Shown piece by piece: positions 5,810-13,078 of a stretch of 64,000 bases of DNA; position 1 is the stretch's first letter, and the number at the start of each line of letters is the position of its first letter. The notes beneath the pieces are model-generated. The model saw nothing but the letters and a program-made list of their open reading frames with translations. It made no database searches and was not told where the DNA came from. The position numbers and the translations under genes are program-made. The DNA is from a virus, in IMG/VR virus record IMGVR_UViG_3300021424_002547, positions 1 to 64,000 of that record; one strand, written 5' to 3'.

Positions 5810-6197
5810 CCTAGGTCGCTGTGTTAGAGACATAGTAAACGGAGAAGTCAGCATCGACGATGTGGCCTTCATCATCACCGCTACCAGTATCTCGGAGAGA
5901 GAACAACTGGGCAACGTGATCCTGATGTACAGATCAGAACCCAGGTATCTCCAAGGACTAGACCATCAACAATGCCTGGCTGTGGCGGAGCAGCTCTGGG
6001 ATTCGAATCGAATCCTACAGCCCAGAAAACAGGGTCTACATCGCCACGCACAGCCAGAAAATAGCATTTGGGTGGACATGTTCCCCACGGAACTCAGCGA
6101 AAACGAAGCGGTCAAGAACGCTTGGTCCGCCTACAGATTTATGCTACATATGGTAGAAAACGTGGACACAGAGGCCACGGAGGTTTTCAGGACATAA
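5793..6197 (+). CDS. hypothetical phage protein
   Basis: MKIGFSLGRCVRDIV start. Confidence 0.65.
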   Translation: MKIGFSLGRCVRDIVNGEVSIDDVAFIITATSISEREQLGNVILMYRSEPRYLQGLDHQQCLAVAEQLWDSNRILQPRKQGLHRHAQPENSIWVDMFPTELSENEAVKNAWSAYRFMLHMVENVDTEATEVFRT

Positions 6198-6207
6198 GGA
6201 GTGGACT

Positions 6208-6393
6208 ATGATCAAAATGGGCAGCAAATGGACCAGCAGCGATGGAAAGATTTTTATAGTTTTGGGCACCGTGGATCTAGAGGGTAAACGATGGGTCTAC
6301 TACAGATCGGAAACTTCGGAAGCGCATTTGCCCAACGAATTCAGCTGTTTTGAAGAGAGTTTTTTGGCTAGATTTCGCCCGGTAGTTGAATAA
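6208..6393 (+). CDS. hypothetical protein
   Basis: AAGGAG RBS; short ORF. Confidence 0.6.
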   Translation: MIKMGSKWTSSDGKIFIVLGTVDLEGKRWVYYRSETSEAHLPNEFSCFEESFLARFRPVVE

Positions 6394-6447
6394 TACTATG
6401 CTATAATTATCACAGTGATAAGTAGTAGTGAACGTTAAGGAGATATC

Positions 6448-7023
6448 GTGTCAAAAAGATTGGACGATTTCAACGCCCAAGACCGCCAGAATGTTAAATT
6501 CCAAGATGCAGGAGTACATTTCCTCGTCGGGGAGATAGATGAGGAAAGCGTAAACGAAACTGTTAAATGGCTGGCCTACGAGAACATAGATCCTAGACCA
6601 GATCGAGTGCTGACTCTTTATGTCAATAGCCAAGGAGGAGATCTCTACGAAGCACTTGGACTCATAGACATGATGAGGAACAGCCGGATTCCCATACGGA
6701 CTATCGGATATGGATCTGTGATGAGTGCCGCTTTCCTCATCGTGGCTTCCGGTTCAAAGAGTGAACGTTATGTTACCAAAAACTGCGGTATCATGTGCCA
6801 TCAGATGTCATCCACAGAAGAGATGGGCAAGTATCATGATATCAAAGCACAGAGAAAAGAAACAGATCGACTTAATCAAGCCATGTACAATGTCCTGAAA
6901 GAAACCACAGGACTAGATGGTCGCATCATCAAGACCCGACTTCTGCCTGCACACGATGTCTACATGACCTCAGAAGAGATGATCGAGTTCGGCGCTGCCG
7001 ATCAGATATTAGAAAGGGGATGA
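6448..7023 (+). CDS. clpP: ClpP-like serine protease
   Basis: LYVNSQGG, nucleophile region GSVMSAA, IMCHQ, D.YMTSEE..EFG.AD. Confidence 0.85.
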   Translation: MSKRLDDFNAQDRQNVKFQDAGVHFLVGEIDEESVNETVKWLAYENIDPRPDRVLTLYVNSQGGDLYEALGLIDMMRNSRIPIRTIGYGSVMSAAFLIVASGSKSERYVTKNCGIMCHQMSSTEEMGKYHDIKAQRKETDRLNQAMYNVLKETTGLDGRIIKTRLLPAHDVYMTSEEMIEFGAADQILERG

Positions 7024-7334: not shown

Positions 7335-7445
7335 ATGATGAAACAACTTCATTCGATTAGAACCAGTGCAAAACAGATGGCCATAACATATTGGTCAGAG
7401 CCCTGTTTTGGCCTAGGAAATGATCGTACAAGGGGTTCCGCATAG
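7335..7445 (+). CDS. putative attenuator leader peptide, 36 aa (MMKQLHSIRTSAKQMAITYWSEPCFGLGNDRTRGSA)
   Basis: ATG lies at the expected +1 (leaderless); 19/20 amino acids and 31 distinct codons; 3' end overlaps antiterminator strand. Confidence 0.75.
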   Translation: MMKQLHSIRTSAKQMAITYWSEPCFGLGNDRTRGSA

Positions 7446-7601: not shown

Positions 7602-7672
7602 GTAGTAAAATGTTTTCCTACTCCCGTTGACAAGGAGGACACCCGACATAGTCGCGGAGAGCATTTTACTAC
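7602..7672 (+). ncRNA. unidentified structured RNA
   Basis: 17-bp closing stem 7602-7618/7656-7672 with G-U pairs, two internal hairpins. Confidence 0.55.
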
Positions 7673-7700
7673 ACACTCTCCACCTCCGCCTGCACAGCGG

Positions 7701-7729
7701 TTGACAGCATAGCGGGAGAGTGTTATAAT
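7701..7729 (+). promoter_or_regulatory. second sigma70 consensus promoter, immediately before tRNA-Tyr
   Basis: TTGACA-N17-TATAAT, lying inside inverted repeat 7673-7681/7715-7723. Confidence 0.7.
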
Positions 7730-7737
7730 TTTTCACT

Positions 7738-7823
7738 GGATGCGTGTGCCGAGCAGCGAAGGCAGCGGTCTGTAAAACCGTGACAGGGAAACATCGTAGG
7801 TGCGAGTCCTACCGCATCCACCA
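7738..7823 (+). tRNA. tRNA-Tyr(GTA)
   Basis: Cloverleaf, GCGGT-CTGTAAA-ACCGT, long variable arm, CCA. Confidence 0.9.
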
Positions 7824-7960
7824 TTAAGTGATAGCATGGCTCGTAGGGATCGATCAATCCCAACCTTGTCCGAAGCGGGAAGCCTGTGATACCGGTAAAC
7901 GGCAGATATAATCTGCCAACATCAGGTAGCAAGAGGATAGTAAACCGTGCTATCACTTAA
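7824..7960 (+). ncRNA. unidentified structured RNA between tRNAs
   Basis: 16-bp closing stem TTAAGTGATAGCATGG/CCGTGCTATCACTTAA and internal hairpins (GGCAGAT/ATCTGCC, GGGAT/ATCCC). Confidence 0.6.
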
Positions 7961-7961
7961 T

Positions 7962-8036
7962 GGTTCCATAGTATATCGGTTAGTATAGCGCCCTGTCACG
8001 GCGCAGGGACGGGTTCGACTCCCGTTGGGACCGCCA
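7962..8036 (+). tRNA. tRNA-Asp(GTC)
   Basis: Cloverleaf, GCGCC-CTGTCAC-GGCGC, CCA. Confidence 0.92.
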
Positions 8037-8059
8037 AGGATTGTGATAAGTAGATTTAC

Positions 8060-8134
<75 letters not shown>

Positions 8135-8144
8135 AGTTTTAGAT

Positions 8145-8218
8145 GCGGCGGTAGTTCAATGGTAGAATGAGAGACTTCCAATCTCACGACAAGGGTTCGA
8201 TTCCCTTTCGCCGCTCCA
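8145..8218 (+). tRNA. tRNA-Gly(TCC)
   Basis: GAGA-CTTCCAA-TCTC, U73, CCA. Confidence 0.88.
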
Positions 8219-8228
8219 AGTTTTCCGT

Positions 8229-8304
8229 TCCGGAGTAGCTCAGTTGGTAGAGCGTTGGTCTGTTAAACCAAATGTCGCTGGATCGTGCCCAGCCTCCGGA
8301 GCCA
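8229..8304 (+). tRNA. tRNA-Asn(GTT)
   Basis: TTGGT-CTGTTAA-ACCAA; atypical T-loop (ATCGTGC). Confidence 0.85.
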
Positions 8305-8311
8305 ATATAAT

Positions 8312-8386
8312 GGGGATGTAGTGCTAATGGGAACACACCTGTTTTGCAAGCAGGAATTGAGAGTTCGATTCTCTCCATCTCCACCA
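8312..8386 (+). tRNA. tRNA-Ala(TGC)
   Basis: Anticodon TGC, G3:U70 pair, CCA. Confidence 0.92.
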
Positions 8387-8394
8387 TAGTTTTT

Positions 8395-8473
8395 CCGAGT
8401 GTAGGATAGCCTGGTTCATTCCGCCTGCTTTGGGAGCAGGATGTCGCAAGTTCGAATCTTGCCACTCGGACCA
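8395..8473 (+). tRNA. tRNA-Pro(TGG)
   Basis: CCTGC-TTTGGGA-GCAGG, CCA. Confidence 0.92.
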
Positions 8474-8477
8474 TTTT

Positions 8478-8551
8478 GCGTCGTTCGTCTAATGGTAGGG
8501 CCGTGCCCTTACAAGGCACAGACGGAGGTTCGATTCCTTCCGGGGGTGCCA
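8478..8551 (+). tRNA. chimeric tRNA-Val(TAC) with non-cognate 3' acceptor strand
   Basis: Anticodon arm GTGCC-CTTACAA-GGCAC; 5' GCGTCGT does not pair with local CGGGGGT but pairs perfectly with ACGACGC at 9265-9271. Confidence 0.75.
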
Positions 8552-8562
8552 TAAATAGGGTT

Positions 8563-9201
8563 ATGAAAAAGTTATCTGTTTTTTTAAATCATCCTCAATG
8601 TAGTGTGCAAAGCGCACACGGAATTATAAGAGCATTAAGCGACGACTGGGAAATAGATTGCATAGAACGTCATCATCTGAGAGATTCTATTTTAAAAAAA
8701 TATGAAGTTTTAGCTGTGCCGGGCGGACTAGGAGATAGTGATACTTGGCACAATATAATGGAACCTTTCAAAGATACTGTGCTAAATTTTTTGGCAAGAA
8801 ACAAAAAGTATCTTGGTATTTGTATGGGTGCATACTGGGCAGGCTCGTATTATCTTAATGCACTTCAAGGCGTTGAACCTGTACAATACATAAAAAGACC
8901 TAGATCTGAAATTAAAAGAAGTTTTGGAACAGTTGCAGAAATAGATTGGTTAGGTGAAACTGAATCTATGTATTTCTATGACGGATGCACCTTTGAGGAT
9001 CAAGGTGGTGATTACAATATAGTAGCTAGATATGCTAATAAAGATCCAGCTGCTATTATACAAAACAACATAGGCCTAATAGGACCTCATCCCGAAAGTG
9101 ATATCTATTGGTATGCTAAAGGTTATCTAAAACCCCACTGGCATGAATATAGACATCATTTACTGCTGCGTAATTTTGTTCAACAGTTAGTAAAGAATTA
9201 A
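8563..9201 (+). CDS. class I glutamine amidotransferase-like (BPL_N-type) protein
   Basis: VPGG.GD, YLGICMGAY, GPHPE; TAAATA 5 nt before ATG. Confidence 0.8.
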   Translation: MKKLSVFLNHPQCSVQSAHGIIRALSDDWEIDCIERHHLRDSILKKYEVLAVPGGLGDSDTWHNIMEPFKDTVLNFLARNKKYLGICMGAYWAGSYYLNALQGVEPVQYIKRPRSEIKRSFGTVAEIDWLGETESMYFYDGCTFEDQGGDYNIVARYANKDPAAIIQNNIGLIGPHPESDIYWYAKGYLKPHWHEYRHHLLLRNFVQQLVKN

Positions 9202-9202
9202 T

Positions 9203-9275
9203 ACCTCTGCCAATAGATTGGGAGCAGGTCTTCTAAGCCAGCTATCTGAGGGTTCGATTCCTTCACGACGCACCA
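9203..9275 (+). tRNA. chimeric tRNA-Arg(TCT)-like 5' part joined to tRNA-Val 3' end
   Basis: CTTCTAA loop, atypical D arm; 5' ACCTCTG pairs with CGGGGGT at 8541-8547. Confidence 0.6.
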
Positions 9276-9282
9276 GTGTTAT

Positions 9283-9357
9283 GCACGGTTCGACTATCGG
9301 TTAGGTCAACAGCCTTTCACGCTGTAGAGACGGGTTCGACTCCCGTACCGTGTACCA
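9283..9357 (+). tRNA. tRNA-Glu(TTC)
   Basis: ACAGC-CTTTCAC-GCTGT, CCA. Confidence 0.92.
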
Positions 9358-9378
9358 ATATCAACTATAAGTATAATA

Positions 9379-10023
9379 ATGAAGAACTATGTAGACCTTT
9401 TTCCTGTACCTATCGCTAGATATCACAGAGATGATCATGAAGATCTAAGGATCAAATTCCTAACGATATTAGACCAATATCCCAAAGAACGAGCCTACTG
9501 TGAGACGCCGGGGCTGATACATTTTTTCCAAAATGGCGATCTTGATCTCCGGCAATACGAACAATTTCATGATCTACATCGATGGATTTTATCCAGTGTG
9601 AAAGATTACGGCGAGAAATTTTTTGGCATCACAGAGACAGAATTCCTAGATCTAAATGTATGGATCAATGCTAACATAGGAGGTTTCCAGCATCCCCATA
9701 ACCACGGAAATAGTCTCTTCAGCGCCACATACTACATACAGTTTGATTCTGAGATACACAGCGGTCTAGAGTTTCATAACCCTAGGTCACCTAGCAGTCT
9801 GTTCAAACCTTATCTAGACGTTAACGGCAGCAAGGAAACTGAGCACAGTAAACACAAACATCTGATACCTGTGTCCCAAGGGGATCTATTAATATGGCCC
9901 AGCGAACTGATGCATGGGTACGATCAACAGAAAGTCGCTGTGCCTAGGGTGTCGATGAGCATGAATTTCTTACCAGAAACGGTAAAGAGTCATGTCTATG
10001 GTTTTAAAATCAGTAAATTATGA
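9379..10023 (+). CDS. putative 2OG-Fe(II) oxygenase (TIGR02466-like)
   Basis: LFP.PI, HNH..S.FS..YY, WPS.L.H, R.S.SMN. Confidence 0.8.
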   Translation: MKNYVDLFPVPIARYHRDDHEDLRIKFLTILDQYPKERAYCETPGLIHFFQNGDLDLRQYEQFHDLHRWILSSVKDYGEKFFGITETEFLDLNVWINANIGGFQHPHNHGNSLFSATYYIQFDSEIHSGLEFHNPRSPSSLFKPYLDVNGSKETEHSKHKHLIPVSQGDLLIWPSELMHGYDQQKVAVPRVSMSMNFLPETVKSHVYGFKISKL

Positions 10024-10024
10024 T

Positions 10025-10099
10025 GCGGGTATAATTCAGGGGTAGAATGTTTCCTTGCCAAGGAAAATGCCGTCGGTTCGAATCCGACTACCCGCTCCA
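10025..10099 (+). tRNA. tRNA-Gly(GCC)
   Basis: TTTCC-TTGCCAA-GGAAA, CCA. Confidence 0.92.
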
Positions 10100-10105
10100 A
10101 GTTTT

Positions 10106-10200
10106 GCTCCCATAGCTTAACGGTAAAGCTCCCGGCTTATATCCGGGCGATGCCTCTAGATGAGGGGATGATCTAGGTTCGAATCCTAGTGGGAGTACCA
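10106..10200 (+). tRNA. tRNA with TAT anticodon (Ile, AUA reader) and long variable arm
   Basis: CCCGG-CTTATAT-CCGGG; 7-bp acceptor, T arm CTAGG/CCTAG; about 25-nt extra arm. Confidence 0.8.
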
Positions 10201-10206
10201 TTTTAT

Positions 10207-10281
10207 GTATCGGTAGTGTCAACGGCAGCACGACAGTCTCCAAAACTGCTAGTGAGGGTTCGAATCCTTCCCGGTACGCCA
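10207..10281 (+). tRNA. tRNA-Trp(CCA)
   Basis: CAGT-CTCCAAA-ACTG, G73, CCA. Confidence 0.9.
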
Positions 10282-10299
10282 CATTCAAGAAAGGAGGGC

Positions 10300-10911
10300 A
10301 TGATGCCTAGCGTATTTTTAGTATCGGACACGCACTTCGGACACGCTGGCGTGTGCCGATTCACTCGAAATGACGGAGTAACGAAGTTAAGACCTTGGAC
10401 AGATCCAGATGAGATGGATGAGGCTATGGTCAAGGCTTGGAACGAAAAGGTCAAGCCCACGGACAAGGTCTACCATCTCGGTGATGTGGTGATCAATCGT
10501 AAGGCTATGAAAACCTTGGCTCGTTTGAACGGTGATAAGGTTTTGATCCGCGGTAATCACGATATCTTTCGTGATGACGAATACCGCGAATACTTCCGTG
10601 AGTTACGTGCTTACCATGTGATGAATGGAATGATCTTGTCACACATTCCTGTACACAGTGACAGTTTGGGTCGCTTCGGTACCAACATTCACGGACACTT
10701 ACACGCCAACCGTGTAAAGAAAGCCCGCGGAGTTGATGCCAGAACGGGTGCTGTTTTGTACAGCGATGAGATCGATCCTAGATACCATTGTGTCTGTGTA
10801 GAACAAACTCCCGATTTCGCACCAATCTTATTCGAAGATGTCATAAAGCGTATCCAAGAGGAAGGTGGCGAAATAGGTTTCCGCAGCGGTAATGGCCCTA
10901 TCGTAGATTAG
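10300..10911 (+). CDS. calcineurin-like metallophosphoesterase
   Basis: SDTHFGH, LGD, GNHD, HGHLH; AAGGAGG RBS. Confidence 0.9.
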   Translation: MMPSVFLVSDTHFGHAGVCRFTRNDGVTKLRPWTDPDEMDEAMVKAWNEKVKPTDKVYHLGDVVINRKAMKTLARLNGDKVLIRGNHDIFRDDEYREYFRELRAYHVMNGMILSHIPVHSDSLGRFGTNIHGHLHANRVKKARGVDARTGAVLYSDEIDPRYHCVCVEQTPDFAPILFEDVIKRIQEEGGEIGFRSGNGPIVD

Positions 10912-10957
10912 AGTTTTTCTCGGTTCTCTTCTAAATAAAAACCGAGACCAAATGCAT

Positions 10958-11035
10958 GCAACGGTGGCAGAGAGGCCCAATGCAAGAGTCTGCAAAACTC
11001 TAAAACCGTGAGTTCGAATCTCACCCGTTGCTCCA
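10958..11035 (+). tRNA. tRNA-Cys(GCA)
   Basis: AGAGT-CTGCAAA-ACTCT, U73, intact acceptor stem. Confidence 0.9.
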
Positions 11036-11039
11036 GAAC

Positions 11040-11120
11040 GCCCCTATGGCCAAAATGGTAAAGGCGGCTCTCTCAAAAGGAGTGTTATAACTATCGGTTC
11101 GATTCCTACCGGGGAGGCCA
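11040..11120 (+). tRNA. chimeric tRNA-Leu(CAA) with foreign 3' end
   Basis: 5' two-thirds nearly identical to 11730-11810; T stem ATCGG/CCTAC mismatched. Confidence 0.65.
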
Positions 11121-11133
11121 TATTAAATATTCA

Positions 11134-11382
11134 ATGAACTGGATAAAAATTAACAGTCTTGAATTTGCTCAAGAAGTAGTCCGAGACAGTGATCACGGAC
11201 CAGTTACTTGGTTATATATCCGTGGACCTCAAGGTACGGTCAGAGCCTACGACATAGGCTTTATCACTGATGGGTACTATGAGCAGTATCCAGATCGGTT
11301 ATGGGATCTTTACCTGGATATACTTGCTGTACTAGCAGGACACTATCACTGTTGCTTGTCGGGCAGAGTTTGGAATTTTTGA
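11134..11382 (+). CDS. hypothetical protein
   Basis: TAAATA 4 nt before ATG. Confidence 0.55.
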   Translation: MNWIKINSLEFAQEVVRDSDHGPVTWLYIRGPQGTVRAYDIGFITDGYYEQYPDRLWDLYLDILAVLAGHYHCCLSGRVWNF

Positions 11383-11552
11383 AAAGATCTTTGTTGCCAC
11401 CACATAAGCCACGGACTTATGTGAGCCAGACACATTACTAACCACATCATGGGCATTTCTATACCATGATGAGAATTCAAATAACTTATCACGGCTCCTA
11501 GTAGAAACACAGGTGCCGGAGCAAGACTAAAGAATGTATTAATTTTTTTCAT
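11346..11552 (-). CDS. small membrane protein
   Basis: Two hydrophobic helices; TAAATA 5 nt before ATG on minus strand. Confidence 0.6.
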   Translation of the reverse strand: MKKINTFFSLAPAPVFLLGAVISYLNSHHGIEMPMMWLVMCLAHISPWLMWWQQRSFQKFQTLPDKQQ

Positions 11553-11567
11553 ACAAGTATTTATAAT

Positions 11568-11639
11568 GCCTCTGCAGATGGAGCTGTGCCAGGCCTTCTA
11601 AGCCAGGTTATGAGGGTTCGAATCCGATTGGGGGCACCA
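11568..11639 (+). tRNA. chimeric tRNA-Arg(TCT)-like 5' part joined to tRNA-Leu 3' end
   Basis: GGC-CTTCTAA-GCC; 3' CCGATTGGGGGCACCA complements the Leu(CAA) 5' half at 11040. Confidence 0.55.
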
Positions 11640-11647
11640 AAGATTAT

Positions 11648-11725
11648 GGAAGTGTGGCAGAGAGGCCCAATGCAAGAGTCTGCAAAACTCTAAAGCCGTC
11701 GGTTCGAATCCGACTCCTCACTCCA
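11648..11725 (+). tRNA. chimeric tRNA-Cys(GCA) with Ser-type 5' acceptor strand
   Basis: Body duplicates 10958 copy; 5' GGAAGTG is identical to Ser(TGA) at 11818 and does not pair with 3' TCCTCAC. Confidence 0.65.
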
Positions 11726-11729
11726 GTAT

Positions 11730-11810
11730 GCCCCTATGGCCAAATAGGTAAAGGCGGCTCTCTCAAAAGGAGTGTCATAACTATCGGTTCGAATCCGATT
11801 AGGGGCACCA
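11730..11810 (+). tRNA. tRNA-Leu(CAA)
   Basis: Intact cloverleaf, CTCAAAA loop, CCA. Confidence 0.88.
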
Positions 11811-11817
11811 GTATTAT

Positions 11818-11907
11818 GGAAGTGTGGCAGAGCCTGGCTGAATGCACCTGTCTTGAAAACAGACGATCCGAAAGGGTCCGTGAGTTCGAATCTCACCGCT
11901 TCCACCA
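11818..11907 (+). tRNA. tRNA-Ser(TGA)
   Basis: CTGT-CTTGAAA-ACAG, long variable arm, CCA. Confidence 0.9.
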
Positions 11908-11911
11908 AACT

Positions 11912-12002
11912 ATGTTCCAGTCTTTGTACAGTGAATCCAGCCGGGTGCCTATAAGGTTAGTAGAGACTATGCTGTCGCGGGTAAGCAGCATCTCGGGAAC
12001 AT
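11912..12002 (+). ncRNA. unidentified structured RNA
   Basis: Closing stem ATGTTCC/GGAACAT; internal AGTCT/AGACT and ATGCTG/CAGCAT. Confidence 0.45.
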
Positions 12003-12077
12003 CGGTCCGTAGCTCAGTGGAAGAGTTCTGGTCTTCGAAACCAGCAGTCGGGAGTTCGAATCTCTCCGGACCGGCCA
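12003..12077 (+). tRNA. tRNA-Arg(TCG)
   Basis: CTGGT-CTTCGAA-ACCAG, CCA. Confidence 0.9.
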
Positions 12078-12095
12078 AACATAAAGGAGAATGAT

Positions 12096-12299
12096 ATGAA
12101 ACCCGTAACATTTAGAAATCGATTGAATGGTGAGCGATTCGTCTGCGAAGATACTCGTGCCGTCGAGCAGATTGACGGAGTAGAATATCTCATAGTCCAT
12201 CGTCCCGACGAGCATCGCTCATTCAAGATGCGCAGAGATGCGCTGGAGAAAGATACCGCCGTGGTGAAAGGGATATCACGAAACTTTGCGAAGGTTTAG
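12096..12299 (+). CDS. hypothetical protein (3' end overlaps tRNA-Arg(GCG))
   Basis: AAAGGAG RBS. Confidence 0.65.
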   Translation: MKPVTFRNRLNGERFVCEDTRAVEQIDGVEYLIVHRPDEHRSFKMRRDALEKDTAVVKGISRNFAKV

Positions 12300-12329
12300 T
12301 TTCACGTTCGACTCGTGGCGGCGGTGCCA
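12255..12329 (+). tRNA. tRNA-Arg(GCG)
   Basis: Acceptor ACCGCCG/CGGCGGT, D arm GTGA/TCAC, AAACT-TTGCGAA-GGTTT, CCA. Confidence 0.8.
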
Positions 12330-12335
12330 AACAAT

Positions 12336-12411
12336 GCAGGGGATAGTGTACCGGTGCGCACAACTGTCTGTGAAACAGTAAGATAGGGTTCAACTCCCGT
12401 CCACCTGCCCA
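12336..12411 (+). tRNA. tRNA-His(GTG), imperfect stems
   Basis: ACTGT-CTGTGAA-ACAGT, G-1/C73; acceptor and T stems have mismatches. Confidence 0.65.
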
Positions 12412-12413
12412 AA

Positions 12414-12489
12414 CCCGATTAAGCTAACCTGGTGGAAGCGTCTGTTTGAAGCACAGAAGGGCTTGGTTCGATTCCAAGAGTTGGGACCA
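12414..12489 (+). tRNA. tRNA-Phe(GAA)
   Basis: TCTGT-TTGAAGC-ACAGA, CCA. Confidence 0.85.
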
Positions 12490-12497
12490 TATTTCCG

Positions 12498-12526
12498 TTG
12501 ACAACTGAAGATTTAGAATACATAAT
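12498..12526 (+). promoter_or_regulatory. sigma70-type promoter before tRNA-Leu(TAG)
   Basis: TTGACA-N17-CATAAT. Confidence 0.7.
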
Positions 12527-12541
12527 ACTATTAAGATTAAT

Positions 12542-12624
12542 GCCCCGGTGGTGGAATGGTAGACATGACGGTCTTAGAAGCCGTTGCCTAGTGCGTGAGA
12601 GTTCGAGTCTCTCCTGGGGCACCA
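12542..12624 (+). tRNA. tRNA-Leu(TAG)
   Basis: ACGGT-CTTAGAA-GCCGT, variable arm, CCA. Confidence 0.92.
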
Positions 12625-12629
12625 AAGAT

Positions 12630-12788
12630 ATGAAACTATACGAAGCGACGATCAGAGAACCCGGGCCTGGCACAGAAGAACGCAAGGTTCGGATAGGTGC
12701 CGAAAGCGCCGAAGAAGCCCGCAGGCTGCTACAGCAGCTCTACGGGCCGAGATCAGTTCCCTATCTGCCTCGTGTAGTCCCAAATTAA
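12630..12788 (+). CDS. small hypothetical protein
   Basis: MKLYEATIR... between tRNAs. Confidence 0.55.
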   Translation: MKLYEATIREPGPGTEERKVRIGAESAEEARRLLQQLYGPRSVPYLPRVVPN

Positions 12789-12789
12789 T

Positions 12790-12877
12790 GGAGGGGTCCC
12801 ATAATGGTATTGGAGCAGATTGCTAATCTGTCGGTTGCGCAAGCGGCTTCGGGGTTCAAGTCCCCGTCCCTCCACCA
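12790..12877 (+). tRNA. tRNA-Ser(GCT)
   Basis: GCAGA-TTGCTAA-TCTGT, long variable arm, CCA. Confidence 0.9.
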
Positions 12878-12898
12878 ATATTTTTACAAAGGACTGAT

Positions 12899-13078
12899 AT
12901 GTTTCTAAAACCCACAGCAGCATTTCGATTAAATCAGCAGTCAAAAAGGATCATGGCTACCTATCTTGATCCTCACAAGAGAGGAGAATATAAACGTTCG
13001 ATGATCGAAGCACAATTGGCATCCCTGATCCAACCTAGAGTAATAAAAACTAAAAGAGATGAAAAGGACGCAGAATAA
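12899..13078 (+). CDS. hypothetical protein (59 aa, below ORF-track cutoff)
   Basis: AAAGGA RBS; MFLKPTAAFRLNQQSKRIMA...; TAATG overlap with next ORF. Confidence 0.65.
   Translation: MFLKPTAAFRLNQQSKRIMATYLDPHKRGEYKRSMIEAQLASLIQPRVIKTKRDEKDAE

Follow-up and report, generated by a model that had tools for sequence, protein, structure and literature searches.

Two reciprocal tRNA-Val/tRNA-Arg hybrid genes around a small cargo gene in a phage tRNA array, and their probable origin by recombination on the T-arm

In the tRNA array of the viral record IMGVR_UViG_3300021424_002547 two tRNA genes that flank a single small gene have exchanged their 3' ends: a tRNA-Val(TAC) gene carries the acceptor 3' strand of a tRNA-Arg, and an atypical tRNA-Arg(TCT) gene downstream carries that of the tRNA-Val. 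The window, as used below, is the whole stretch of 64,000 nucleotides analysed (positions 1 to 64,000 of the record); the record itself is 99.7 kb long, about 28% of the genome by CheckV. This reciprocal hybrid structure, observed in an earlier note made from the letters of the window, is real, and the observation was correct. Homology-driven recombination on the T-arm, by way of either a circle or a copied patch, is in our view the likely process by which the two hybrid genes were made.

The left gene opens with the 5' part of the resident tRNA-Val(TAC) (8478-8540, + strand), supported by sequence reading, ARAGORN and Rfam. It comprises the acceptor 5' strand GCGTCGT (8478-8484), the D arm, the anticodon arm with TAC at 8510-8512, and the T-arm GGAGG/TTCGATT/CCTTC (8524-8540). 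The acceptor 3' strand CGGGGGT, the discriminator G and the CCA that follow (8541-8551, + strand) are of Arg type and foreign to Val: a canonical tRNA-Arg(tct) of another phage (L085) ends in the same 28 nt as positions 8524-8551, and 8527-8551 are identical to the 3' end of tRNA-Arg(acg) in L086-L088. The Val T-arm and that of the canonical Arg(tct) have 17 identical nt in common. The local acceptor strands pair at 4 of 7 positions, two of these being G-T (manual count), and a contiguous tRNA-Val(UAC) cloverleaf with a 7-bp acceptor stem is absent from 8478-8551. ARAGORN calls no tRNA in this segment as it stands, and the Rfam tRNA model matches 8487-8540 only (model positions 10-63), a stretch that comprises the body but no acceptor stem.

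The right gene begins with the 5' part, through the T-arm, of an atypical short-D-arm tRNA-Arg(TCT), hereafter the odd Arg (9203-9264, + strand), as identified by alignment to intact family members. Its acceptor 5' strand reads ACCTCTG (9203-9209), its anticodon loop CTTCTAA with TCT at 9232-9234, and its T-arm GAGGG/TTCGATT/CCTTC (9248-9264); 58 of its 62 nt match the intact odd Arg genes of L123 and L124 (manual count from the alignment). It then continues into the acceptor 3' strand ACGACGC, the discriminator A and the CCA (9265-9275, + strand), assigned to tRNA-Val by pairing and by an intact relative. Here 3 of 7 positions of the local acceptor strands are paired (manual count). The Rfam tRNA model gives no match to 9203-9275 at E<=1, and ARAGORN does not call the gene as it stands.

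Read crosswise, the strands fit. As the earlier note had it, the Val 5' strand (8478-8484) pairs with the distal 9265-9271 (7/7 Watson-Crick), and the Arg-like strand 9203-9209 pairs with 8541-8547 through five Watson-Crick and two G-T pairs. Its statement that excision would restore both tRNAs agrees, for the tRNA-Val, with an in-silico exchange of the 3' ends, after which ARAGORN calls a tRNA-Val(tac) of 74 nt; the Val 5' part and the distal end at 9265-9275 together make a complete tRNA, of which an intact homologue is known. An identical 14-mer, GGTTCGATTCCTTC, is indeed present at both junctions, the left copy, which marks the crossover region, at 8527-8540 and the right copy at 9251-9264 (both + strand). 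Since this 14-mer is conserved T-arm, the repeat alone is unsurprising, and 10-12 similar copies occur in the tRNA array; the above-chance feature is the crosswise acceptor fit, not the repeat. In a control with a strict ARAGORN-based script, run over 66 array strands from all fetched loci, exactly one reciprocal pair was found, that of the present locus; CCA-bearing T-arms without a local acceptor stem numbered 31 in the 66 array strands.

The junctions fall in a repeated motif, and the earlier note had allowed for an assembly chimera, in which two tRNA genes would have been mis-joined at their common T-arm. The contigs speak otherwise. Logan contigs of lake metagenomes, from four of four independent runs, read through both junctions and show no difference there, one of these runs coming from another study and year, and a single contig spans 8434-10061, and with it the whole insert; the common stretch, at 14 nt, is also below the usual assembly word length. 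We give a chimera practically no credence. At least 92% of the sampled words occur in each of 20 runs. In the contigs of the four runs, which drop rare variants, none skips 8541-9264 and no circle form appears. Contig joints at 8033-8232, 8252-8423 and 8254-8358 have short sides of 20-22 nt that lie within other tRNAs, and are taken as tRNA genes of other organisms.

Could the hybrids instead function as RNA, either as a crosswise-paired split or domain-swapped tRNA pair, or with the Arg pieces forming a permuted tRNA gene? Both crosswise stems are possible, the internal arms of both bodies are intact, and the arrangement is stable in 20 runs. However, the ribosome would hardly accommodate a covalently separate dimer with two anticodon domains, the layout is conserved in no other array (1 of 66 strands), and the run search returned no RNA run with this stretch (0 RNA rows). 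Neither bacteria nor phages are known to process split or permuted tRNAs, and we hold this reading to be very improbable.

The earlier note had also suggested looking for an intact tRNA-Val among relatives, and one was found. The related phage IMGVR_UViG_3300036770_008028 has an intact Val gene with the same 5' and 3' strands, matching the window in 59 of 63 nt of the 5' part (94%; manual count) and in 11 of 11 nt of the 3' end. The empty-site arrangement itself is seen in L107, which is syntenic (Asp-Thr-Gly-Asn-Ala-Pro-Val(tac)-Glu-Gly(gcc)-Ile(tat)-Trp-Cys...), has no ORF at the corresponding site, and shows the same Val-Glu spacing of 7 nt as here. Set against the preferred explanation, the Val allele of L107 differs in sequence, and the identical-allele relative has its Val elsewhere in its array, not at the syntenic place. 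Two Pro-Val(tac) pairs occur in the single L107 array. A megablast search of 7700-12900 against 50,697 phage records yielded single-tRNA matches only, at 1-2% coverage, and no close cultured relative. A match in G001 upstream of tRNA-Glu was considered as a Val remnant and rejected as an ordinary neighbouring tRNA-like gene. A link of the broken Val gene with the leader peptide of the window (from 7335, 36 aa), in which only Val is missing, was likewise rejected. The earlier note had allowed for coincidence, and in L046 and L072, too, Val alone is missing from the leader while an intact tRNA-Val(tac) is kept; the leader of G001 has all 20 residues.

The 724-bp insert runs from the Arg 3' end through an 11-nt spacer and a BPL_N-like gene to the odd Arg 5' part. 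The cargo gene (8563-9201, + strand, 212 aa) had been called BPL_N-like in the earlier note, and the open reading frame indeed matches Pfam PF09825, a family of class I glutamine-amidotransferase-like fold, with an E value of 6.2e-7 (29 bits against a cut-off of 24.2). It has more than 600 relatives in phages, the best at 66% identity. Searches of PHROGs, NCBIfam and PDB sequences with the cargo ORFs of both this insertion and a second one described below gave nothing usable, a single PDB row with an E value of 0.36 being dismissed as chance, and no nuclease family matched these ORFs in Pfam or PHROGs. The GC content of the cargo gene is 0.357, as against 0.41-0.48 in its neighbours and 0.393 in the record, a difference that is not decisive. 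Among 160 fetched loci with relatives of the BPL_N gene (80 viral and 80 from metagenomes), none has an odd Arg arm beside that gene, and none shows the exact order Arg - BPL_N gene - odd Arg expected of a donor. In close relatives of the ORF a Pro(tgg) gene lies just upstream of it, with the order Pro-ORF in L127 and L128; in L131, whose ORF is a close relative of the BPL_N gene, the order is Pro-Arg(tct)-ORF.

The tRNA-Leu(CAA) gene is split in a similar way by a second insertion, at 11040-11639. Its left junction (11040-11120, + strand) joins a tRNA-Leu(CAA) 5' part, up to 11102, to an Arg-type 3' end (11103-11120), and its right junction (11568-11639, + strand) joins an odd tRNA-Arg(TCT) 5' part, up to 11621, to the tRNA-Leu(CAA) 3' end (11622-11639). 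The cargo between them (11134-11552) consists of an ORF of 82 aa on the + strand (11134-11382) and a convergent ORF of 68 aa on the - strand (11346-11552), with no family match. An exchange of ends at GGTTCGA gives a tRNA-Leu(caa) in ARAGORN, equal in 77 of 81 nt to a second Leu gene, and the odd Arg body (11568-11625) agrees with its intact counterpart in L107 at 57 of 58 nt (manual count). In L207 the 13-nt spacer and the ORF start of this module stand after an intact canonical tRNA-Arg(tct); the two Arg pieces here clearly derive from two different Arg genes. A module homologous to the second insertion recurs in 9 viral contigs. A third kind of chimera, in which the 5' strand and D-loop start of a tRNA-Ser(TGA) are joined to a tRNA-Cys body (11648-11725, + strand), marks a Cys-Leu tandem duplication by unequal crossover (repeats D4 and D9). 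As the Leu(CAA) insertion and this D-loop chimera lie in the same array, conserved tRNA loops are recurrent crossover points here.

It may be asked whether any insertion is needed, as a longer array of the form Pro-Val-...-Arg-ORF-odd Arg-...-Val-Glu could have lost two stretches by separate T-arm deletions. The two Pro-Val(tac) pairs of L107 and the position of Pro(tgg) just upstream of the BPL_N gene (in L127/L128, and in L131 with Arg(tct) between) are in keeping with this, as are the evidently common T-loop and D-loop crossovers of the array. Against this, two independent and exactly reciprocal deletions would be required at the present locus and two more at Leu(CAA), together with duplicate Val and Leu genes with matching ends, while one insertion per site is simpler; the identical 14-mer at both junctions also counts against it. 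We regard the two-deletion course as improbable.

The earlier note proposed a Campbell-type integration into tRNA-Val of a circle with a single tRNA-Arg. The part that stands is the splitting of a resident Val gene in its T-arm by an insert with the BPL_N gene and Arg pieces; a single tRNA-Arg gene as the source of both Arg pieces is doubtful, in that the left piece matches the canonical Arg(tct) and the right piece the odd Arg family. The explanation that we prefer is as follows. A resident tRNA-Val(UAC), lying between tRNA-Pro and tRNA-Glu in the tRNA operon of a lake jumbo phage, would have been interrupted within its T-arm by recombination that used the conserved T-arm as a short homology of 14 to 17 nt. 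As for the order of events and the form of the donor, a circle may have been excised between two T-arms and integrated in Campbell fashion, with homology in place of an integrase. Alternatively, a co-infecting relative with the arrangement Arg - ORF - odd Arg may have served as template for a patch: after a break in the Val T-arm, the two broken ends would have annealed to the two T-arms of the donor. A patch from such a donor fits as well as a circle. Either route would have produced two reciprocal hybrid genes whose acceptor stems are unable to form, and since neither stem could form, tRNA-Val(UAC) and this tRNA-Arg(UCU) would be lost to the phage. The cargo gene would ride in the transcript of the tRNA operon.

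With regard to the enzyme, the earlier note had seen no integrase, and PF00589 (integrase) and PF00239 (resolvase) indeed have no match in the 99.7-kb record, with controls positive in 14 and 12 of 14 genomes, respectively. GIY-YIG (PF01541), HNH_3 (PF13392), HNH (PF01844) and phrog_14736 likewise have no match in this record, and neither RecA nor RecT was found in it. The only ORF of the 724-bp insert is the BPL_N-like gene, and no recombinase lies in or beside the element. As the record covers about 28% of the genome, either kind of enzyme, recombinase or nuclease, could be encoded in the remainder. The absence of an exact donor from the fetched loci and of an identified recombination enzyme from the record both weigh against the preferred explanation.

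Both insertions of the window begin with an Arg-type 3' end and finish in a 5' part of the same odd Arg family, a regularity that plain microhomology does not predict. The odd Arg body consists of the acceptor 5' strand, a 3-bp D stem abutting the acceptor, an anticodon arm with an A-A mismatch, and the T-arm. Its cloverleaf has 21 predicted pairs, 14 of them with compensatory changes on both sides among 12 intact members, and on this alignment it is a conserved, covarying and widespread family of predicted phage tRNA-Arg(TCT). The Rfam tRNA model misses all six of the members searched at E<=0.1; ARAGORN calls the odd Arg in 11 of 16 loci. The window copies lack their own matching acceptor 3' strand; beyond the T-arm or T-loop they continue with the 3' end of Val or Leu. 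The acceptor stem is intact at the other 13 distinct loci, and the odd Arg is not usually a junction. The upstream neighbours of intact odd Arg genes have T-arm runs of 4-12 nt in common with it, nothing striking. In L126 an ORF starts 18 nt downstream of an intact odd Arg, and it is a relative of the L116 HNH endonuclease. The L116 ORF matches a PHROG HNH endonuclease (E 4e-26) and an ORF of L115 a PHROG endonuclease (E 7e-9), with nothing in Pfam for either. HNH relatives were found at 4 of 13 distinct odd-Arg loci as against 2 of the other fetched loci, these sets having been fetched in different ways.

Such neighbours bring in another reading, in which the odd tRNA-Arg(UCU) would mark a dedicated mobile system: a T-arm homing endonuclease, SegB-like or HNH, supplied by a co-infecting phage or by an unseen part of the genome, would have cut the Val gene, and repair would have copied the cassette (ectopic homing), the odd Arg being a travelling spare tRNA. 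The constant ends of the two insertions, the 17 nt of the Val T-arm identical to the canonical tRNA-Arg(UCU) T-arm, the arrangement in L126 and the HNH relatives in 4 of 13 odd-Arg loci all favour it, as does T4 SegB, whose recognition site includes an 11-bp T-psi-C motif and which drives the inheritance of tRNA genes in its neighbourhood (PMC2330249). Yet neither insert has a nuclease gene inside or near it, the 99.7-kb record as a whole yielded none, and the odd Arg keeps its acceptor stem in all 13 other distinct loci. Moreover, in L126 it lies upstream of the nuclease gene while here it lies downstream of the cargo, and the HNH enrichment compares loci fetched in different ways. We consider this reading unlikely, if worth keeping in mind. 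It is conceivable, though doubtful and decidedly speculative, that phage tRNA arrays harbour a system of cassettes that works without an integrase and has the odd tRNA-Arg(UCU) as its hallmark, a system in which genes bounded by two Arg T-arms would be excised or copied as units and would land at matching T-arms, triggered by a T-arm-cutting homing nuclease of a co-infecting phage. If this were true, T-arms would be the counterpart of integron attC sites, and tRNA arrays would serve as an expression platform.

Among large phages the gene order of tRNA arrays and their interspersed accessory genes vary greatly between relatives, and the shuffling behind this is poorly documented. The searched passages of one paper (PMC6409571) include one on homing nucleases and are without the terms recombination, pseudogene and chimer. 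Our full-text literature searches returned no paper on tRNA genes hybridized reciprocally at the T-arm, nor on cassettes bounded by tRNAs in the arrays of phages. Under the preferred explanation, the Val/Arg locus would be a clean natural scar that records how tRNA clusters get shuffled; both reciprocal junctions are visible because the recombining tRNAs are non-cognate. No integrase would then be required: a conserved T-arm of 14-17 nt would suffice for the transfer of a gene into a tRNA gene. There is also a practical side: tRNA finders miss the hybrid Val and Arg genes, yet call the broken Leu (11039-11120) and Cys (11652-11725) genes, and phage tRNA complements can therefore be miscounted, while a widespread short-D-arm tRNA-Arg(UCU) family escapes the Rfam tRNA model.

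Prophages and genomic islands integrate in tRNA genes according to the Campbell model, with crossovers in the T-loop, the anticodon loop or the 3' end; Reiter et al. in 1989 and Williams in 2002 are said to have described such integration. The present locus resembles these cases in that the insert lies inside a tRNA gene, with junctions in the T-arm and a short direct repeat on both sides, and in that recombination between the repeats would in principle restore the target. It differs in that no integrase was found and that the element, at 724 bp, holds one non-recombinase gene. Further, the 3' end supplied is of Arg type and not a copy of the Val end, by which the target would be destroyed, and the 'attachment site' that the insert brings along belongs to another tRNA (Arg). 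It is also unlike an integron cassette: there is no PF00589 match, and the junction repeats are tRNA T-arms rather than attC hairpins.

Permuted and split tRNA genes are known from Cyanidioschyzon merolae and Nanoarchaeum equitans and are expressed by means of archaeal or eukaryal bulge-helix-bulge splicing. In common with them, a tRNA 3' end here stands upstream of the 5' part that matches it, and the two complementary strands of an acceptor stem are encoded at a distance from each other; unlike them, there is no sign of repair at the RNA level, and the arrangement is best read as a scar in the DNA.

The SegB protein of phage T4 is a free-standing GIY-YIG homing endonuclease encoded in the T4 tRNA cluster (PMC2330249). 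The likeness to it lies in the setting in a phage tRNA cluster, in an event centred on the T-psi-C stem-loop, and in relatives without the inserted gene, in our case L107 at the same place; in T4, neighbouring tRNA genes are co-transferred between co-infecting phages (PMC2330249). Reciprocal hybrid tRNA genes are not described for SegB homing in the available part of that paper (PMC2330249). The present insert, moreover, has no endonuclease gene inside or beside it.

Hybrid tRNA genes that arise from unequal crossing-over between neighbouring tRNA genes are familiar from classical E. coli and T4 genetics. Crossovers in conserved tRNA segments and chimeric genes are common to those cases and the present array, and the Ser/Cys chimera at 11648-11725 is exactly such a product. 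Unequal crossing-over, however, yields one hybrid together with a duplication or deletion, whereas at the Val/Arg locus two reciprocal hybrids flank foreign DNA, and an insertion is therefore needed, either of a circle or of a patch with two crossovers.

Within an array of 22 tRNA genes on one strand (7738-12877, ARAGORN) with several small protein genes interspersed, tRNA-Val(TAC) begins at 8478 with the 5' strand GCGTCGT, and its D arm, anticodon arm and T-arm are all normal up to the T-stem end CCTTC (8536-8540). Directly after this, from 8541, stands CGGGGGT-G-CCA, which does not pair with GCGTCGT. A 212-aa BPL_N-like ORF follows (8563-9201), separated by a single base from a second tRNA-like body with the 5' strand ACCTCTG and TCT in its anticodon loop, which extends from 9203 to its T-arm end at 9264; there the sequence continues with ACGACGC-A-CCA, which complements the Val 5' strand perfectly. 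An identical 14-mer is present at 8527-8540 and 9251-9264. On re-reading the sequence, the structure described in the earlier note, two hybrids with swapped 3' ends and a common 14-mer, proved exact.

The local acceptor pairs number 4/7 and 3/7 in the two hybrids, so judged from sequence an acceptor stem cannot form in either. As a result no working tRNA-Val(UAC) or tRNA-Arg(UCU) is present within the 99.7 kb of the IMG/VR record seen, which contains no tRNA genes outside the array. Oriented in the same sense as the tRNA operon, the cargo gene would be co-transcribed with it. ARAGORN calls neither unmodified hybrid, and the Rfam tRNA model recognizes no more than the Val body, at model positions 10-63. 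According to the earlier note, excision would restore both tRNAs. Exchange of the 3' ends in silico yields a tRNA-Val(tac) of 74 nt with a perfect acceptor stem that ARAGORN calls, but the "restored" Arg is not called. This missing call is no sign of decay, because tRNA finders poorly detect the unusual tRNA-Arg family to which it belongs (odd Arg hereafter). As a control for chance, the arrays of all fetched loci (66 strands) were screened for CCA-bearing T-arms without a local acceptor stem, reciprocity being defined as 7/7 pairing in which up to two G-T pairs were allowed; among 31 such stemless T-arms the sole reciprocal pair was that of the Val/Arg hybrids.

An assembly artefact was considered by aligning Logan contigs of four metagenome runs (X1, X12, X18 and X20) to window positions 7900-10100. 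X1 and X12 each have a 701-nt contig corresponding to 8424-9124 and a ~960-nt contig from 9103 to ~10065, with zero differences in both; X18 has a single contig (8434-10061) with three differences, and X20, from another study and another year, has contigs 8444-8681 and 8890-10069. This explanation is rejected because contigs bridge both junctions in all four runs. No contig in these runs omits 8541-9264; rare variants are dropped from contigs, so rare excised forms would be invisible. The population is nearly invariant at the locus (four differences, each in a single contig) and the internal arms of all the tRNA pieces are still intact, which suggests that the event may be recent. The window stretch is present in 20 runs, from lake or freshwater.

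The resident gene can be recognized from the syntenic relative L107 (IMGVR_UViG_3300047481_001076), which has the same tRNA order as the window, namely Asp, Thr, Gly(tcc), Asn, Ala, Pro, Val(tac), Glu, Gly(gcc), Ile(tat), Trp, Cys, Ser(tga), Arg(tcg), a 67-aa ORF, Arg(gcg), His, Phe, and so on, with 77-95% DNA identity over the common parts. Its Val, an allele differing in sequence from that of the window, is whole, has Pro and Glu as its neighbours and is separated from Glu by 7 nt, as in the window. No BPL_N-like, 2OG oxygenase, phosphoesterase or 82-aa ORF is found between the corresponding tRNA genes of L107, which has a phosphoesterase relative elsewhere (75% DNA identity). L107 keeps a whole Val between Pro and Glu without the ORF, so the gene already in place was Val, and the ORF with its Arg pieces is what was inserted. 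In the window a 2OG-Fe(II) oxygenase gene (9358-10024) lies between Glu and Gly and a phosphoesterase gene (10282-10957) between Trp and Cys, pairs that are directly adjacent in L107; neither gene has a tRNA scar beside it, indicating that ORFs enter or leave the array by other routes too. A conserved 63-67-aa ORF between tRNA-Arg(tcg) and tRNA-Arg(gcg) is retained in several relatives (L107, L116, L111); in the window the end of this ORF, at 12096-12299, overlaps the start of Arg(gcg) at 12255-12329, and in L111 and L112 it comes after Arg(tcg) with no called Arg(gcg).

The earlier note had also pointed, as a possible coincidence, to the upstream leader peptide (7335-7445, 36 aa), in which Val is indeed the only residue absent. 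A link to the insertion did not hold up: the leaders of two relatives (L046 and L072) lack only Val even though tRNA-Val(tac) is retained there, and in other relatives both Val and Glu are missing, so the Val-less leader is a family trait rather than a result of insertion. Leader-like peptides with 18-20 different amino acids are found upstream of many related arrays (window, L046, L072, L086, L087, L163, L092); Val is the residue most often absent (window, L046, L072, L163; together with Glu in L086/L087), regardless of whether the array has a tRNA-Val gene.

The origin of the four tRNA pieces can be traced individually. The right-junction 25-mer has one IMG/VR occurrence outside its own record, in IMGVR_UViG_3300036770_008028, where an intact tRNA-Val(tac) ends with it. 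This gene matches 8478-8540 at 59 of its first 63 nt, the four differences leaving the anticodon stem paired, and its last 11 nt are identical to the window's Val 3' end; a whole tRNA-Val, as sought among relatives, is found both here and in L107. The left-junction 25-mer occurs in four other contigs, and in each of them it closes an intact canonical tRNA-Arg gene (tct in one, acg in three). The perfect match to the tct gene, that of IMGVR_UViG_3300017917_002068, extends over 28 nt and takes in the T-stem GGAGG, so that the Val and Arg T-arms share 17 identical nt. The right hybrid matches the odd Arg of L123/L124 at 58/62 nt up to the T-arm end, and then continues as the Val 3' end.

A second, similar insertion has split tRNA-Leu(CAA) at GGTTCGA (11040-11639), and comprises an Arg-type 3' end, two convergent ORFs of 82 and 68 aa, and an odd Arg(TCT) 5' part. 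Exchange of the Leu ends gives a tRNA-Leu(caa) by ARAGORN, identical at 77/81 nt to the intact second Leu gene; the broken left Leu gene is itself still called tRNA-Leu (11039-11120). In locus L207 a relative of the 82-aa ORF (88% identical) sits 13 nt after an intact canonical tRNA-Arg(tct), and 11 positions of this spacer match that of the window. The 3' piece CGGGGAG pairs with the odd Arg 5' strand at 5/7, counted as non-pairing. This context and non-pairing together indicate an insert that starts in the T-loop of a canonical Arg gene and ends in that of an odd one, and on such sequence comparison the involvement of two Arg genes is settled for this case only.

For the Val insertion, the earlier note proposed a circle with a single tRNA-Arg. 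The crosswise ACCTCTG/CGGGGGT stem does form, with two G-T pairs and an A1-T72 pair, and is compatible with one Arg gene; but the pieces belong to different families, as the odd members closest to the 5' piece end in CAGAGGC, whereas the 3' piece CGGGGGT is identical to canonical Arg genes. The nearest BPL_N gene contexts, Pro-ORF in L127/L128 (66% aa) and Pro-Arg(tct)-ORF in L131 (58% aa), are consistent with a canonical-Arg-to-odd-Arg donor here too; no donor with an odd Arg downstream of the BPL_N ORF was found among the fetched ORF-relative loci.

The anticodon-arm motif of the odd Arg is found in 23 viral contigs, 13 of them with distinct tRNA-like genes having their own matching acceptor strands (loci with odd Arg: L104, L105, L107, L109, L111-L113, L115, L116, L121, L123-L126). 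Twelve intact members give a common cloverleaf in which a 7-bp acceptor stem abuts a 3-bp D stem, the anticodon stem has a conserved A-A mismatch and the T-arm is normal; compensatory changes affect 14 of 21 predicted pairs. These genes, of ~72 nt, are widespread in phages and show strong covariation. The Rfam tRNA model matched none of six members searched at E<=0.1 and neither window copy at E<=1, and ARAGORN calls the odd Arg in 11/16 loci. L107 has an intact odd Arg between Phe and Leu(tag), with none at the corresponding window site (12490-12541). In both, Leu(tag) has a promoter-like TTGACA/TAnAAT pair in front of it; the window's array is preceded by a similar word (7619-7633). The array of L124 contains a full-length GOLLD RNA (6032-6498, minus strand; Rfam RF02032, 217.8 bits).

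Two reciprocal hybrids surrounding foreign DNA require an insertion. Two T-arms might have recombined to form a circle, which then integrated into a third T-arm; alternatively, a patch might have been copied from a co-infecting relative after a break in the Val T-arm, both ends annealing to two donor T-arms. The left junction offers 17 nt of homology and the right one 14 nt. The reported lack of an integrase extends to the whole 99.7-kb record, in which no integrase, resolvase, GIY-YIG, HNH_3, HNH, RecA or RecT was found; this record, whose first 64 kb form the window, is ~28% complete by CheckV, so that the phage is probably larger than 300 kb, and ~72% of its genome lies outside. On the absence of recombination and nuclease genes from this portion, the insertion is read as homology-driven. 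A T-arm-cutting homing nuclease is a possible trigger: the T4 SegB recognition site includes an 11-bp T-psi-C motif (PMC2330249), and related odd-Arg arrays encode HNH endonucleases, as in L116 (7137-7745, minus strand; PHROG E 4e-26) and in L126, where the HNH gene begins 18 nt after the odd Arg (HNH match 9588-9791, odd Arg 9945-10018, reverse strand). The L126 HNH gene is AT-rich in a GC-rich phage, and HNH relatives occur in 4/13 distinct odd-Arg loci.

The use of the same odd Arg family by both window insertions is the main observation that plain microhomology leaves unexplained; there is a smaller chance that this tRNA marks a dedicated cassette system. The second "tRNA-Cys" (11648-11725) is a chimera that opens with the 5' strand and the first part of the D-loop of tRNA-Ser(TGA), continues as a Cys body and finishes with a Gly(GCC)-like 3' end; it lies in a Cys-Leu duplication (10956-11106 and 11646-11796; 88% identity over 151 nt), and is what simple unequal crossover at a common D-loop word would be expected to produce. 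Full-text literature searches returned no account of tRNA genes forming reciprocal T-arm hybrids, or of gene cassettes bounded by tRNAs, in phage arrays. The locus is a clean record of gene acquisition by such arrays, and its parts are already known: recombination at tRNA genes, Campbell-type insertion, unequal crossover and homing nucleases in tRNA clusters.
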